NCBI GenBank assembly: GCA_013265495.1
Contig: MU058205.1
Location: forward strand, 74,312-138,311
Source: Vicugna vicugna
Lineage: Eukaryota
Length of the DNA stretch: 64,000 nt
Direction: 5' to 3'
A model generated the notes under the pieces. The model searched no databases. It had not been told where the DNA came from and saw only the letters and a program-made list of their open reading frames with translations. A program made the translations under genes and the position numbers. Of this stretch, positions 16,489-59,048 are shown piece by piece (position 1 is the stretch's first letter; the number at the start of each line of letters is the position of its first letter).

Positions 16489-16830
16489 GTTTTTTTTTTT
16501 AACTTTTTTACTTTTAAAAAAATTTTTATTTTTTTCAGTTTTATTAGGTAGAATTATTACAGTTTGGCTGCACATACACATTATACTGCATGTAAACACA
16601 TATATACAATACACTGCACAATTTTTTTAGTTTAAATACATGCACTGATCATTGTTTCTAAGAACAGATTAGAGCTTTAGCTTTTTAACTTCCATAGTTA
16701 TCAAAGGAATAAAGCCAATCACAAAATAAGAATCAACAGAATGCAGTAACCCAATCATAAAGGACAGTCAGATGTGCTCACACATATTCAAGAAATCCAT
16801 CATCTAAGTTATAAATAGTAAGTAGTTAAT
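16489..16830 (-). mobile_element. unidentified polyadenylated retroposed sequence
   Basis: poly-T tract, then tttatt (AATAAA on the minus strand) at ~16540, then AT-rich sequence with a homolog at ~50005-50130. Confidence 0.5.
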
Positions 16831-16839
16831 TTGTGTCCT

Positions 16840-16917
16840 TATTTTTTTATTTTATTACTTTTTATTTTTTAAGTGAGTTTATTTACTTCTTTTATTTTCC
16901 TTTTCTTTTCTTTTTTC

Positions 16918-26388: not shown

Positions 26389-27510
26389 TTAAACTTACAA
26401 GCTTTTGCACAGCCAAGGAAACCATAAGCAAAACAAAAAGACAACCTATGGAATGGGAGAAAATATTTGCAAAATATGAGACTTACAAGGGCTTAATTTC
26501 CAGAATATATAAGTTCATACAACTTAATAAAAATAAAACAAACAAACCAATCCAAAAATGGGCTGGAGACCTAAATAAGCAATTCTCCAATGAAGACGTA
26601 CAAATGACCAACAGGAACATGAAAAAAAATGCTCAACATCACTAATTATCAGAGAAATGCAAATAAAACTACAGTGAGGTATCACTTCACACTGGTCAGA
26701 ATGGCCATCATCAAAAAGTCCACAAACAATAAATGCTGGAGAGGGTGTGGAGAAAAGGGAACCCTCCTACACTGCTGGTGGGAATGCAGTTTGGTACTAC
26801 TTTATGGAAAACAGTATGGAGATTCCTTAAAAAACTAAAAATAGACTCACCATAAGATCCAGCAATCCCACTCCTTCCTGGGCATGTATCCAGAGGGAAT
26901 TTTAATTCAAAAAGATACATGCACCCCAATGTTCATAGCAGCACTATTTACAATAGCCAAGACATGGAAGCAACCTAAATGTCTATCAGCAGATGACTGG
27001 ATAAAGAAGCTGTGGTATCTTTATACAATGGAATACTACTCAGCCATAAAAATATAAAATAATACCATTTGCAGCAACATGGATGGGCCTGGAGATTGTC
27101 CTTTTAAATGAAGAAAGCCAGAAAGAGAAAGAAAGATACCATATGATATCACCTATATGTGGAATCTAAAAAAAAGACAGATGAACTTATAAAACAGAGA
27201 CAGATTCACAGACACAGAATAAACTTATGGTTACTGGGAGGGAGGGGGTGAGAAGGGATAAATTGGGAGTTGGGGATTTGCAGATACTAACTACTATCTA
27301 TAAAACAGATAAACAAGTTTCTCCTGTACAGCACAGGGAACTACATTTAATATCCTATAGTAACCTGTAATGAAAAAGAATATGAAAATGAATATATGTA
27401 TGTATATGGGTGACTGAGGCATGATGCCTCACACCAGAGATTGACCCAACAGTGTAAATTGACTATACTTCAATACAAACATTAAAAATTAAGAAAAAAT
27501 TTTAAAATAA
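26389..27510 (+). mobile_element. LINE-1, 5'-truncated (ORF2 C-terminus plus 3'UTR)
   Basis: MEWEKIFA..., [38 protein letters not shown] (L1 ORF2 Cys-rich domain); TSD aggaaaatg(c/g)agggaaga at 26371-26388 and 27511-27528. Confidence 0.95.
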
Positions 27511-39580: not shown

Positions 39581-39722
39581 TGTGGCTGAGTCCTTGGGGC
39601 CCTTATCCAGGGAGGGTCCCTGCTGGGCTCAGCAGGACTGCAATGTGGCTGAGTCCTTGGGGCCCTTATCCAGGGAGGGGCCCTTATCCAGGGAGGGTCC
39701 CTGCTGGGCTCAGCAGGACTGC
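39581..39722. repeat. 63-bp-period tandem duplication with a nested 18-bp duplication
   Basis: units start at 39581 and 39644; ggcccttatccagggagg is repeated at 39661 and 39679. Confidence 0.95.
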
Positions 39723-41704
39723 TCTGTGCAGCCTCTTATGGCCCCAGAAGCCTCACATCCAAAAGCTCAATTCACTTGGACTGGGCAGGGGACCTCGTTC
39801 TGTTCTTCCTCACACTGCCGGGACTCTGGGCGCTCGTGGACCCCCACGCCTCGCGGACCGAGCTGTGTGGAAGTGGGCGGGGCCCTGGCCAAGTCACCCA
39901 GTCCTCTGAGGGTCGTTGTTCTTGCGTCAGGAGGGGACAGCCACCATCTCCGCTGTTGGGAGGGCCAGGCCACACGGCGCGGGGAGCTGCTCCACCCTAA
40001 CGGCGTCGCCCCTCCCAGCCTCTGGAGCAGCTTTCTCTCCCTGCTTCCTCACCTTCTCCCTCGCCCTCCTCTACAACTCAGTGAATTGAGTTTCCCCTCC
40101 TCCTGAGACAGAGATGGCCCTGGGTGCTCAAAGGGGGGCACCTCCCCACATCAGGGGGCCCTCAGGGGCTCCGCTCCATGCCCACCTATGGGCACGCGGG
40201 TCAGAGCCAGTGCTTAAAATCACAGAAGCCAGGGACAGCCTCGGGCTTCTCCCCCAGAGGGATGTGATGAGGTCTGATGAAGGGGGCCGGGCCCACAGCA
40301 ATACTGACTTTGCGGATAGTGTAGCTCTCCCCCCAGGGCCTTAACTTGCCTGGAGAAGATTCTGGAAATATCTGGTTCTGGGGCACGTTCTGCAGCATGG
40401 GCATGGCTTGGGGAGACTGTGACCATCTTCATCGCTCTGTTCTAGAGCTGAAGAGGGAAGGACCCTGTGCAGGCTGTGCTCCCGAGTCGCCTGCCCATGT
40501 GGCCTCTGACACGTCTTTTATCCCATCGGTGAGCCCTGCAATAAATAGCTCTCCGCCCATCCCAGGGTCTCCTGAGAAGGCCTGGTGCCCGGAGTGTCCC
40601 CTGTGGGCAGAAAACAAAGTCCGCGTCCTCCACGGAGGAGGGTGAGGGGTGGACCCGAGAGCAAAAGGCAAATGACCAGCTCCCAGGCCCCTGTGCTGCG
40701 CAGCCTGCGGACTGCAGACCCTGTCCACCTTCGAGAGGCCCTTCCCGGCTCGCCGCTCCTCCGCATGACAGGGAGAAGGAAACACAGTGAACCCAGGAAT
40801 TACGAGCCGAGCCAGGCAACGGCGCTCTCCACTGCTGGGAAAGAGTCATTGTTTGAAGGCAGTGCTGGGTGATTTGAGAGAAGACGTGGATGGGGGAGGG
40901 GGAAGGATGCTTCCATAGGAAACCTAGTGAGTGGGGGTAAGGTGACAGGGCAAGTCTGATCAGGGGAACGGGACCTGGGAGAGGAACAGGAGAAAAATCC
41001 TGTGAAGGGGCAGGGTTAGGGGTACAGCTCCAAACCCGCTGTGTTAGCTACCCGTGAGTCGACCTCACGCTTTCAGTTGCCGGAGCAGGCCTGAAATGGG
41101 GACCGTGCGTGTCCTGGGGGGTCCTGGGGAGCACGGAGCAATGAGGTGGGGACTAAGGAACGGACTTCTCTCTGTGCTGTCTTCCTGGGAGCCTTAATCC
41201 AGTGGGAGAGACACATACATTCTTACTCATGGAATATACATATGAAAAAGCTCTTCATAAAGCAACACAAACACCATTAAATATACGTGTCTGTGAGGAA
41301 TGCATGTTTCCCAAGGAAAGGAAGATGTCCAGAGGGCTTTGGTTTAAACCCACTTAGCTTTCCTCTGGCTCCGTCCTTTCCCCTCTGCAGCTGCTGCTTA
41401 CTTATATCCTGCCCATTTGCCTGGGGATAAACACATCTGTTCCTTCCTTGGGTCAGTCGCCTGGCTTCTCTGGACCTCGGTCTCTCACCTGTGCATTGAG
41501 ATGAGACCCAGCTCTGCCTTCCAAGAGCCGCTCGCGTGTTTGCATCAACCTTCTGTCAGTTTCTCTGGCCTCGCCCTGGTGTCCAGCCCTGGACAAAGGG
41601 CAGGCATTATTCACTACCCGACCTCTTGTCCTGCTCCCGGGATGAGCTAAGAAAGCTTTTCTACCTGAGAGTGGATTTCTAGTCAGCGGGAACTCTCCAG
41701 GAGC

Positions 41705-48338: not shown

Positions 48339-48874
48339 TGTAACAGGAGAGACAACTCTGACTCCACATTAGATCTGTTCCTTTGGCTTTAACTTGTGCC
48401 CTGTTTTCTAGGCTGTCTTGCCGGCTCTGCACCTTTTGTAAAAGAATGTTGCCTTTAGCCTGAAATATGCAGGAGAGCCTACTCTCAAGGCTCTGACCTT
48501 TAAGGACATTAACACTTTTGCACGTCTATAAAGATGACAAGTTGTAGAATAGAAAATAACTTGTTTGTTTTGTTAGAGGTTTTGCAGGGGCACCAGGACC
48601 TGACCCACGTGGACAGCTGCAAGGACAAAGGATTCCAAGAACAAAGGATTCCGACACCAAGAAGTTTACAAAAACCAACCACACCCCCTCACCTTTTTAG
48701 TATAAAAGGAGCCTGAATTCTGACTTGGGGAAGATGGTTCTCCAGGACATTAGTCTGCCATCTTCTTGGTCTGCTGGCTTTCTAAATAAAGTCATTATTC
48801 TTTGCCCCAACACCTTGTCTCCTGTTTTATTGGCCTGTTGTGCAGCAAGCAGAAGGAGTTTGGACTCAGCAACA
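48339..48874 (+). mobile_element. ERV1-type solo LTR
   Basis: tgtaacagg...cagcaaca termini, TATAAAA at ~48701, AATAAA at ~48785, 4-bp TSD cctt/cctg. Confidence 0.85.
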
Positions 48875-49479
48875 CCTGAATGGTCTTTTGAAGTACTTGA
48901 TCCAGATAACGTCACAGGATAGGGTGGGATTGTCCAGCCACAGCTTATGATACCAAAGTAATGCCAGGAGTCCCAGGAGCTGAGGAAAATTCTAGGCTTT
49001 TATCGTTTCTCCTGCTTAATAAACTTGTCCTCCCCCAGTGAGGCCTGTTGAGCAAATGACACACAGTTGTGTAATCCAGAGCCACCCCCGGGGGGGTGGC
49101 GTGATCCAGCTCCCCACTCTTCACAGCAGTTACATCCTATGAATGAGTATCCAGGAACCCGGAGTCAGTGACCCTGAACCACTTCTCTTGGGGAAACACA
49201 GAGGTAGCTTCTCCAGACACAGCATTTTGGTCAAATATACCCTTGTCTGGTGTGTGGTTCTGTTTAGACACTTCATTTCATATTTGTTGAGCATCATGGT
49301 CACAGTGCTGACACAGGCGGGGAGGAAGCTCACCTAACATGTGTTTTCTCCATGGATCACATCAAACCTCTTTGAGCTTAGAGACACTAGACAGCGCTTC
49401 GGCTCTTCCCTTAGGGGTGATTTTATTTATTTTATTTTATTTTATTTTTTATAAATATTGTTTTCTTCTTTTTTTTTAT

Positions 49480-49995
49480 TAATACATTTTATTTATTTTA
49501 GAGCAGTTTCAGGTTCACAGCAGAATTGAGCAGAAAATACAGAGAGTTCGCACATAGCCCTCCCCACTCACACATATATCCTCCCCTGCCCTCAACATCC
49601 CTCATCAGCGGGGCATATTTGGTACAATCAGTGAACCAACATGGGCACATTATTATCAACGAAAGCCCATAGTTTACATTAGGGCTCACTCTTGATGTTG
49701 TACATTCTATGGGTTTTGACGAACGCATACTGACATGTAGCCACCGCTATAGTATCATACAGAGTAATTTCAATGCCTTACAAATCCCTTTGCTCCATCT
49801 ATTCATTCCTCCCTCCCTCCCTCTCCCCAAACCCCTGGAAACCACAATCTTTTTATTGTTTCTGTAGCTGTGCCTTTTCCAGAATGTCATTTGGTTGGAA
49901 TCTTACAGTTTGTAGCCTTTTCAAACTGGTTTCTTTCATTTAGTGACACGTCTTTTAAGTTTCTTCCATGTCTTTCATGGCTTGATAGCTCATTT
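49480..49995 (-). mobile_element. L1MC1-like 3' end
   Basis: tttagagcagtttcaggttcacagcagaattgagcagaa...cccatagtttacattagggctcactcttg...catggcttgatagctcatttc. Confidence 0.8.
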
Positions 49996-50374
49996 CTTTT
50001 TTTTAAACTACACATATATTTTTTAATTTACATATATGTACTGTTCATTGTTTCTAAGGATGTTTAGAGCTTTAGCTTTTTAAACTTACATAGTTATCAA
50101 AGGAATAAAGCCAAACACAAAATGAGAATTGATTCGAAAAGATACACACACCCTGCTATTAGCAGCAACATTATTTATAATTGCCAAGATATGGAAGCAT
50201 CCTTAGTGCACATCGATAGCTGAATAGATAATGGAGATGCAGCATATGTATATATGTAATGGAATACAGCTCACCCACAAGAAAGGATATTTTGCCTTTT
50301 GTGACCCTTTATTCACTTTTTTTCACTTCAAAAACCAGAATTTTATAACCAGCATAAACATTTCCATTACATGA

Positions 50375-50640
50375 AAAACATCAAAATACCTAGAAATAAA
50401 CTTAACCAAGGAGGTTACCTATACTCCAAAAACTGAAATGACACAAAGAAATGGAAAGATTTCTTGTGCCCTGAGATTGGAAGAATCAACACTATCAATA
50501 TGGCCACACTGCCCAAAGCAATCCACAGATCCAGTACAACCCCATCAAAATACTCATGACATTCCTCACAGAACTAGAACAAACAATTCCAAAATTTATA
50601 AAGAACCACAAAAGACCCTGAACAGCCAAAGCAATCTTTC
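50375..50640 (+). mobile_element. L1 ORF2 fragment, inverted relative to the adjacent ORF1
   Basis: aaaatacctagaaataaacttaaccaaggagg...gattggaagaatcaac...cagccaaagcaatctt. Confidence 0.85.
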
Positions 50641-50696
50641 ATAAGTCTTTTCTTTAATCTTTCTTTCCTTTGTTCTCTTTTCTTATGGTTTGATGA

Positions 50697-51570
50697 CTAG
50701 AGAAGGTCCTTTAACATTTGCTGTAGAGCTGGTGTGCTGGTGCTGAAATCTTTTAGCTTTTGTTTTTCTGTGAAGCTTTTGATTTCTCCATCAAGTCTGA
50801 AGGAGAGCCTTGCTGGATAGAGTATTCTTGGTTCTAAGTATCCCCCTTGCATCACTTTAAATATATCGTGCCGCTCCCTTCTGGCCTGTAGAGTTTCTGC
50901 TGAAAAAAGCTGATGACCTTACGGGAGTTCCCTTGTATGTTATTCGTTGCTTTTCTCTTGCTAATTTCAATATTTCTCCTTATTCTTAATTGTTGCCAAT
51001 TTGATGACCGTGTGCCTTGGTGTGTTCTTCTCAGGGTTGGTTCTGTGTGGCACCGTCTGCACTTCCTGGGCGTGGGTGACTCTTTCCTTTCCCAAGTTGG
51101 GGGATTTTTCGGTTATTATCTCTCTAAAAATTTTCTCAGATCCTTTCTCTCTCCTCTTTCTGGGACCCTATAATGCAAATATTAGAGCGCTTCATGTTGT
51201 CCCAGAGTTTTCTTAAACTATCCTCATTCCTTTCATTTTCTTTTTTCTGTTCTGCAGTAGTGATTTCCACTAATCTGTCTCCTAGCTCACCAATCCCTTC
51301 TTCTGCATCATTTAGTCTAGTCTTGTTTCCTTCTAGTGTGTTGTTCATTTCAGTGATTTTATTCTTTAACTCTGGGTATTCTTTATATTTTCCAGCTCTC
51401 TGCTAAAAACTTCACTCTGTGCTTCTATGCTCCTCTTGAGTTCTCTGAACACCTTGGCCTTCATTATTTCAAACTCTTTCTCAGATCCACTGCCTATCTC
51501 CTCATCACATTTCCTCTTCCGGGATTTTATCTTGTGCCTTGGCCTGGGAGATACTCCTTTGCTGCCTCAT
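50697..51570 (-). pseudogene. decayed L1 ORF1
   Basis: starts MRQQRSISQAKAQDKIPEEE (ATG at 51570); NTLEGNKTRLNDAEEGIGELGDRLVEI...EDSLRKLWDNMKRSNICIIG; ends PALQQMLKDLL* (stop at 50697); frameshifted. Confidence 0.9.
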
Positions 51571-52505
51571 ATTGTCTCTTTCTATATGTTTGTGGACTCC
51601 TTCCACAGGCTTTGGGGTTGTTGTTTTCTTATTTCTGAAATCTGCCCCTGGTGGATGGGACTGGACTAGAGGCTTATGCAGGTTTCCTGGCAGGAGGAGC
51701 CAATGCATGCACACTGCTGGGTGCAGCCTGGTCCTGGACCTCTGGTGGGCAGGGCTGTGTCTAGAGGCCTTTGTGCCTCAGGAAGTCTGCTGATGGATGG
51801 GGCTGTGTTCCCACCCTGTGTGTTGTTTGGCCTGACGCTTCCCTACAGGCTGTTGGGTGGGGCTGGGTCTCGGTGCTAATGATCCAATCAAGGTGTCAGC
51901 CTCCAGGAAAGCTCCTGTAGATGAACACTCCCGGAATGTTTGCCACCAGCTTTTATGTCCCCTGGGTCAGCCGCAGCTGCCCCCCATGTTCCCAGGAAAA
52001 CCTCCAAATGCAGCAGGCAGGCCTGGCCCAGATTCTTATGAAATCACTGCCTCTGCCCTTGGACCTGGCACATGGGAGTTTCCGTGTACACTTCCCATGA
52101 GAATGGAGTCTCTGTTTCCCTCGGTCCCATGAGGCTCCCAGAGCCAAGCACTGCTGTCCTTCAAAACCAGTTGTCCTGCGGTCTCCTCCTCCTCCCAATG
52201 CCAGGGCCCGGGCTGGGGAGCCTGGCGTGGGGCCCAGCGCTCTCACTCCTGTGGGAGGGCCTCTGTGACTTAACTACTCTTCAGCTTGTGGGTCCCCCAC
52301 CTGGGGGGTGTGGGGCCCAATTACATCGCGAGCACGCCCCTCCTACCGTCCTCCTGTGGTTTCCTCTTTATGATTCCAGTTGCAGAAGATCTTTTTTTGT
52401 TCCAGTCTTTTTTTAGATGGTTGTTTAGAAGTTAGTTGTGATTTCGTTGTAGTAGCGAGGGGGTGTGAGCTTGTGGTCCTACCACTCCACCATCTTGACC
52501 AGAAA
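51571..52505 (-). promoter_or_regulatory. L1 5'UTR/internal promoter
   Basis: GC-rich ~930 bp upstream of ORF1, ending in ccaccatcttg (caagatggtgg, the YY1-like motif found at L1 5' termini). Confidence 0.75.
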
Positions 52506-52523
52506 ATTGTTTTCTTCTTTTTT

Positions 52524-52971
52524 AATTGAAGTATAGTTGATTTACAATATTGTGTTCATTTCAGGTTTACAGCAAAGTGATTTGATTATACAAATATATA
52601 TAATGTGTATCTATATTCTTCTTTTGAGATTCTTTTCCAGTGTAGGTTACTACAAGATATTGAATACAGTTCCCTGTGCTATACAGAAAATCCTAATTGT
52701 TTATCTAGTTTATATACAGAAATGTGCATCTGGTAATCCCAAACTCCTAATTTATCCCTTCTCCCCTTCCCCTTTGGCAGCTATAAGTTTATTTTCTATG
52801 TCTGTGAGTCTGTTTCTATTTTGTCAATAAGTTCATTTGCACTATTTTTTAAATTCCACATGTAAGTGATATCATGTAATTGTCTTTCTCTGACTTACTT
52901 CACTTAGTATGATCATTACTAGGACCATCTATGTTGCTGCAAGTGGCAAGATTTCATTTTTTTAGTGGCTG
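52524..52971 (-). mobile_element. LINE-1 3' end; its A-tail continues at ~49425-49456
   Basis: aattgaagtatagttgatttacaatattgtg...gaatacagttccctgtgctatacag...ttttttagtggctgag. Confidence 0.88.
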
Positions 52972-53512
52972 AGCACTTGGGGGCCATTTTGAGTAGTGAG
53001 CTCCCCAACCCAAAGCACAAAAGTGCATAAAATGTGGCACTAAATGACCCCAAAAAGGACGCTTGTTTCCAAAGTAGGGCATCTCCTTGTTCAAACTCCA
53101 CTGGGAACCTGGGCGTCTGGAGACTCAAAGTTTTCACGAATTACCACCGTGAGTGTGGATTTCCAGGTGACAAATACATTTTAGCAAGTAGGTGAATTTG
53201 CAAATACTGAATCCATGAACAAACATCAACTGTATATTTCACCGCATTCATAGCTACCAGCCCTCTAAGTTTTATATCCTGTATACCTTACAATCTGTCC
53301 ACTTCTTTTCATTTACACCTTCCCCACCTCATGATGACTTCCCAGCAAACCTTCTCCTCTGGCTGGACCAGAGCCTTCGCTTCTGAACCCACACCAACTC
53401 CTTAAGATCTTCAGTTTATTTTAATTGGTAGGAAAATGGAAGGTTGGAGAAGAGGGCTGTGGAGAGAGAGGAGAGAAGGGGAAGAGGAAATTTACATTAA
53501 AGGGAATGTATT

Positions 53513-58349: not shown

Positions 58350-58535
58350 TTATTTTACTAACTTTTAGAGGGAGGAGGTAATTAGGTTCATTTATTTATT
58401 TACTATTATCATTTAAATAAATGTTTTGGGGGTAATTGGGTTTATTTTTTTCTTTTGGTGGAGGTACTGGGGATTGAACCCAGGACCTTGTGCATGCTAA
58501 GCAGGCACTCTGCCACTGAGCCACACCCTTGCCCC
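58350..58535 (-). mobile_element. vic-1-like SINE with two tail modules
   Basis: ggaggtactggggattgaacccaggaccttgtgcatgctaagcaggcactctgccactgagc; ggtaattaggtt and ggtaattgggtt tail modules. Confidence 0.88.
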
Positions 58536-58543
58536 CATGATAA

Positions 58544-58625
58544 TTTTTTAATGGGGCTACTGGGGATCAAACCCAGGACCCCGTGTGTGCCAAGCACGCT
58601 CTCTAACACTGAGCAATACCCTCTT
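58544..58625 (-). mobile_element. vic-1-like SINE (head plus short tail)
   Basis: ctggggatcaaacccaggaccccgtgtgtgccaagcacgctctctaacactgagcaataccctc. Confidence 0.82.
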
Positions 58626-58840
58626 CCCGGTCCCGTATGTCTTTAAATGTGCTAATATAATAGCCACGGACATTTTAGGCCACGGAAGATGTTTCAGAGC
58701 CCAGAGTCCACCATGGAAGGGCCACAATGAGCTGACTTATGTTCGCCTCAGGCTGGAATGGCCCTGAAGGCCCCGCGGTACCCTGTGTTCTTGAAACTCT
58801 CTAGAGAAAGGAAATTACTTACTCATCCCCACTCATCTTT

Positions 58841-59048
58841 ATTTATTTTAATTTATTTTTTAATGACTTAGATTTTTAATTTAGTTTTTATTATTTTTTT
58901 GAGGGGAGATTGTGCTTTTTTTGAGGGGAAGAGGTAAGTAGGTTTATCTATTTATTTATTTTTTTTAATTGAGGTACTGGGGATGGAAACCAGGACCTCG
59001 TGCATGCTAAGCACATGCTCTACTACTGAGCTCTACCCTCCACCCCCA
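58841..59048 (-). mobile_element. vic-1-like SINE with extended tail
   Basis: TSD ccactcatcttt at ~58829-58840 and 59049-59060. Confidence 0.9.

Follow-up and report, generated by a model that had tools for sequence, protein, structure and literature searches.

Half-L1 (HAL1) elements, which include human HAL1, HAL1B and HAL1M8 and the bat elements HAL1-1A_ML and HAL1-3_ML, are non-autonomous L1 derivatives that encode the ORF1 protein (ORF1p) only, as they are described in the available sections of PMC5753468, PMC5786205 and PMC3342881. According to the same sections, they have had several independent origins in mammals (PMC5753468), are abundant in bats (PMC3342881), and make an ORF1p that likely multimerises with the ORF1p of autonomous elements (PMC5786205); ORF1-only RNAs are able to retrotranspose in culture, as stated in the accessible part of PMC4859970. 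A pig element, HAL1_SSc, is 3,016 nt long with a 5'UTR of 944 nt and an ORF1 of 906 nt, in the consensus data available from PMC6501411. No description of a camelid HAL1 family was found in the literature searched, notwithstanding that Repbase, Dfam and Bao and Jurka (2010) lie outside that search and may already hold one; HAL1 is not mentioned in the available portion of the main text of a camelid transposable element survey (PMC8605555), and one 73-nt alpaca match to bat HAL1-3_ML is listed in the accessible part of PMC6726744.

Here we describe a 3-kb block, lying within the 64-kb stretch of DNA that was analysed (the window), that like the HAL1s has a full-length L1 5'UTR with a predicted promoter, a complete ORF1 and no ORF2, and that shows all the hallmarks of target-primed reverse transcription: a target-site duplication (TSD), an endonuclease site and a poly-A end. 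We consider it, with a probability of about 0.7, to be a dead copy of a non-autonomous, ORF1-only retrotransposon family of HAL1-like type that was mobilised in trans and is probably specific to camelids, although its membership in a family is something we infer.

Results

General features of the window

The window is mammalian DNA, and its SINEs resemble what we take to be the camelid element Vic-1. Two SINE copies are arranged head to tail within 58428-58634 (58441-58529 and 58544-58623), with a third at 58913-59047, and a 52-nt direct repeat of 96% identity with 81 nt spacing is present at 39596-39728. A plus-strand segment at about 48340-48875 resembles a solo retroviral LTR, having TG...CA ends, a TATA-like box and AATAAA. 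On the minus strand, an internally deleted L1 of about 1.75 kb (approximately 33945-32195) contains a short piece resembling a 5'UTR, roughly the final 50 codons of ORF1 and the proximal inter-ORF region, followed by the 3' end of ORF2 and the 3'UTR; no clear TSD was seen for this element.

A single retroposed unit inserted in the tail of another L1

In minus-strand orientation, the block is 3,031 nt long and consists of a 5'UTR, ORF1, antisense scraps of ORF2 and an L1MC-like 3' end, with no ORF2 in the sense orientation. The block lies between the two copies of an exact 18-nt direct repeat, the 5' copy at 52506-52523 (which is also the start of the A-tail of the host L1 described below) and the 3' copy at 49457-49474, both taken on the minus strand. 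This repeat is the maximal match between the ends of the block, and its first 11 nt do not occur elsewhere on either strand of the window. On the minus strand TT precedes the 5' copy and AAAA opens it, forming TT/AAAA, the target site of the L1 endonuclease. The start motif AAGATGG lies 9 nt beyond the end of the TSD, an offset that is identical in the pig L1A1 and HAL1_SSc consensuses as far as these are available. The earlier note on this DNA had proposed that the 18-mer brackets the block, and we find it to be an exact duplication, unique in the window and flush with a full-length L1 5' end. It had also raised the prospect that the match arose by chance between T-rich tails. Among the 1,378 pairs that can be drawn from 53 A-rich tracts of the window, a set that leaves the TSD pair itself outside, only one shares, whatever the offset, an exact run that is 18 nt or longer and includes 4 or more non-A bases, and a chance match is unlikely.

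Excision of the block in silico restores a single A-rich tail to a host L1 at 52524-52973 (minus strand), which corroborates the proposal that the block sits in the A-tail of an L1 of younger type. This host element is a 5'-truncated ORF2 end with a 3'UTR, 77% identical to window positions 27030-27510, and its final 21 nt recur without mismatch at the 3' terminus of pig HAL1_SSc in the available consensus, identifying it as of cetartiodactyl type. The remainder of its A-rich tail, displaced by the insertion, is at 49425-49456 (minus strand), and its own target-site duplication, with the 5' copy at 52974-52990 and the 3' copy at 49408-49424 (both minus strand), has decayed to 13 identical positions of 17 and encloses the host and the block together. 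Since the block splits the A-tail of the host L1, and the more decayed duplication of the host flanks both, the block is one retroposed unit that arrived in a single event. The enclosing duplication also establishes the order of arrival as the outer DNA transposon, which we take to be MER82-like, followed by the host L1 and then by the block. The L1MC piece, should its label be correct, predates the host L1 and must then have come as cargo. The chronologies of repeat elements in the available part of PMC1914374 include L1MC1 for human, cow and rat, with MER82 as its neighbour in the human one.

An L1 head with a complete but dead ORF1

The 5'UTR (51571-52505, minus strand) is full length at 935 nt and contains a predicted internal promoter; its homology to the pig L1A and HAL1_SSc 5'UTR (944 nt) is recognisable by eye in the available consensuses. 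It has a GC content of 55% and a CpG observed/expected ratio of 0.23, indicating decay. ORF1 follows at 50697-51570 (minus strand), and its 874 nt are full length and dead as assembled, with five frameshifts; homology extends through these frame changes over approximately residues 1-295 of a 295-aa relative. Two of ten frames are above a curated Pfam cut-off, matching Tnp_22_dsRBD (E 2e-21) and Transposase_22 (E 4.5e-8), and these domains, together with the position of the start motif relative to the TSD, bear out the earlier description of a minus-strand L1 5'UTR start with a decayed ORF1 at 51570-50697.

No stop codons interrupt the 281 homologous codons of ORF1, an outcome with a simulated probability of 0.22 at 5% decay, 0.07 at 10% and 0.011 at 15%. 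Over the C-terminal frame, identity to the closest relatives of ORF1 is 80%, among the best 120 of the 2,263 that passed from 2,321 candidates. Taken together, these observations suggest that the head has decayed by about 10% or less and that the copy, now dead, is moderately old. We note that a stop-free ORF1 is equally expected from an ordinary L1 that was intact until recently.

Between ORF1 and the first ORF2 scrap, where a short spacer had been described, there are instead 56 nt from the distal part of the L1 inter-ORF region (50641-50696, minus strand), which meet the ORF1 stop at a TAG common to both; a 13-nt motif within them is present in two of the available pig L1 consensuses, about 80 nt ahead of ORF2. 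An alternative assignment of these 56 nt to the proximal inter-ORF region was rejected, with 126 of 300 shuffles reaching its score. The remnant ends about 25 nt short of the expected start of ORF2, and about 300 nt are gone between it and the ORF1 stop, the inter-ORF region of pig L1A being up to 396 nt long. A TAG is present at both edges of the gap, and the available pig L1A sequence has GC after the ORF1 stop, AG before the distal part, and no pyrimidine tract. The gap may thus have arisen by deletion at a microhomology or through a weak GC-AG splice of the SpIRE type; the shared TAG fits a deletion equally.

The 3' half is a patchwork of repeats

The first of the ORF2 scraps, scrap A (50345-50640, plus strand), has internal deletions and reaches approximately residue 853 of human ORF2p, with one frame giving a weak match to residues 828-853 (E 0.0075). 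Scrap B (50130-50305, plus strand) derives from the C-terminal region of ORF2, carries stops and a frameshift, and is not colinear with scrap A. The two are separated by a segment of about 40 nt (50306-50344) with an AATAAA on its minus strand. Both scraps are antisense to the element, as the earlier note had it, and only the boundary of scrap A requires revision, from 50375 to about 50345, a limit that comes from a gappy alignment. A single inversion of ORF2 is ruled out by the scraps being out of order.

The 126-nt segment at 50004-50129 (minus strand) was previously regarded as an orphan, a name we keep for convenience, and proves to be a piece of repeated sequence: a second copy is present 33 kb away at 16610-16733, with 110 of 127 positions identical (87%) and none of 300 shuffles reaching the score. 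That copy is contained in a minus-strand insertion of about 330 nt (16500-16860), polyadenylated (AATAAA and an A tail) and situated in the tail of a SINE, which includes neither of the junctions that flank the orphan in the block. An A-rich repeat matching at 18 of 21 positions flanks this insertion and is of low information. The insertion may come from an mRNA, as a copy of its 3'UTR, or from the 3' end of a sister-family element. A proposed kinship of 50306-50374 with the same insertion was dismissed, 4 and 228 of 300 shuffles reaching the score in two comparisons. Unless the origin is local, a second orphan copy within 64 kb would require approximately 300 genomic copies for a probability of 0.01 and 1,600 for 0.05; finding one this close therefore points to a repetitive 3' cargo, or to local origin.

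The block concludes with an L1MC-like 3' end (49475-50003, minus strand) containing AATAAA motifs and a short A tail, which we take to belong to L1MC1; no second copy of it is present within the window. The passenger DNA had been described as older than the head, and this is arguably so for the L1MC-like end. The ORF2 scraps need not be much older: their identity to other L1 fossils of the window is 71-76%, so that they appear no further from these than the host L1, at 77%.

Presence of the block in relatives

In 19 of 24 entries for public runs, representing organisms A and B and seven studies, 40-54% of the sampled words of 48900-53400 were present, against the 32% at most that the flanks could give without the block. 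Judged by word content, organisms A and B thus appear to carry the block at about 98% identity, and the insertion would not be private to this assembly. Four small runs with 2-5% of the words give no evidence of presence. Even the best-matching runs share only about half of the 31-mers in this interval, corresponding to about 2% divergence, and the species or assembly of the window is noticeably unlike organisms A and B.

Discussion

Mobilisation of an ORF2-less L1 head and its passenger as one unit, the core of the proposal in the earlier note, accords with the TSD at an endonuclease site, with the full-length 5' end, and with the position of the block inside the duplication of the host. In the half-L1 family that we favour, a cetartiodactyl L1 would have been stripped of ORF2 and all that follows it, along with about 300 nt of the inter-ORF region. 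Its head would have ended up upstream of a patchwork made of the antisense ORF2 scraps, a segment derived from a different repeated RNA, and the old 3' end of L1MC-like type. The internal Pol II promoter would transcribe the whole 3 kb up to the L1MC polyadenylation site, the element would supply its own ORF1p in cis, and the ORF2p of intact L1s would nick the TT/AAAA target and reverse-transcribe the RNA in trans. These steps follow what is established of L1 biology, from Pol II transcription to target-primed reverse transcription, and the size and layout shared with pig HAL1_SSc count in favour of a family, of which many copies would be expected.

The strongest competing explanation is a one-off chimera, in which transcription of a broken L1 at one source locus ran on into adjacent fossils, or templates were switched in reverse transcription, and the product was copied once. 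The same insertion hallmarks are expected of such an event, and no copy sharing the junctions of the block was found in the sequences covered, among which there is little camelid DNA. Within the window, the motif spanning the ORF1-stop junction matches only itself; it has no matches in collections of genome and viral contigs that hold little mammalian or camelid DNA; and a protein search with a junction-spanning frame of 51 aa yielded three matches, all to the ORF2 scrap alone. Scans with orphan motifs returned four metagenome and three genome loci, each with only 22 nt in common with the window, which we attribute to chance, and matches to S10 ribosomal protein (E 0.05 or worse) are noise. 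Identity of 87% with the sequence 33 kb away corresponds to two copies decayed by about 6.5% each, as would be seen with a local template. Nevertheless, only one of the four passenger pieces has such a close match in the window, with the scraps at 71-76% and the L1MC-like end having none, and the size and layout of the block mirror those of a known multi-copy HAL1. We therefore regard a one-off origin as unlikely, though deserving of serious consideration.

Much less probable is a series of independent nested insertions that began with the L1MC-like piece, the 18-mer then being a coincidental similarity between A-rich tails. The TSD is indeed A-rich, and MER82 and L1MC1 are close in age (positions 137 and 139 among 360 in the available chronology of PMC1914374), such that direct entry into the Tigger element would have been possible. 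Against this, the match falls exactly at the 5' start and at the poly-A end, where even at any offset the null pairs scarcely produce one, and the outer duplication adjoins the host L1, not the L1MC piece. An assembly chimera of repeats is hardly credible. Assembly indels could be among the five frameshifts of the stop-free ORF1, and other runs contain only about half of the words, but misassembly does not make a TSD with an endonuclease site, nor a host tail that is split yet continuous, and seven studies exceed the word share that the flanks alone allow.

A half-L1 family thus remains our preferred reading, and a more speculative extension, which we hold only tentatively and think doubtful, is that camelids harbour several half-L1 families with a common promoter and ORF1 head and swapped 3' modules. 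One of these would reuse the 3' end of a long-extinct L1MC for polyadenylation and priming. The element at 16.6 kb would belong, in truncated form, to a sister family, and selection would have continued to act on ORF1 while the 3' cargo drifted. Such families, if real, would serve as a natural experiment on whether a passenger RNA needs anything beyond ORF1p in cis.

The block is real and probably uncatalogued, but the half-L1 way of life is already known and the block leaves the known mechanism unchanged. Should it represent a family, it would add one more independent half-L1 origin, reveal a gap in camelid repeat libraries, and show that a foreign, ancient 3' end is accepted by the L1 machinery; standard annotation would break each copy into unrelated fragments and date the L1MC pieces far too early.

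Comparison with known systems

Pig HAL1_SSc, in its available consensus, and the block are alike in their length of about 3.0 kb, their related 5'UTR and ORF1, the absence of ORF2, a patchwork 3' half and a poly-A end. The pig element retains the proximal inter-ORF region and has a cetartiodactyl L1 3' end, whereas the block retains only the distal part of that region and continues into antisense ORF2 scraps and an L1MC-like end. The 3' half of the block does not match the available HAL1_SSc consensus, nor do five short motifs from its orphan and tail have exact matches in the available part of the pig L1 consensus set, and an origin independent of pig HAL1_SSc is likely from these comparisons.

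Two further systems share parts of the proposed history. L1 3' transduction, as outlined in the accessible part of PMC13756887, involves read-through to a downstream polyadenylation site that carries flanking DNA, as we propose for the block. In 3' transduction, however, the L1's own 3'UTR and first poly-A precede the passenger, whereas the head of the block has neither and breaks off in the inter-ORF region; the classical form of transduction entertained in the earlier note is therefore rejected. The multiplication of MLT1F1 within L1MC3 and L1MD3, in the available part of PMC1914374, is an example of old repeats being amplified inside a younger master element, as would be the case here. L1MC3 and L1MD3 were autonomous L1s, whereas in the block the old piece itself forms the 3' end of the element.
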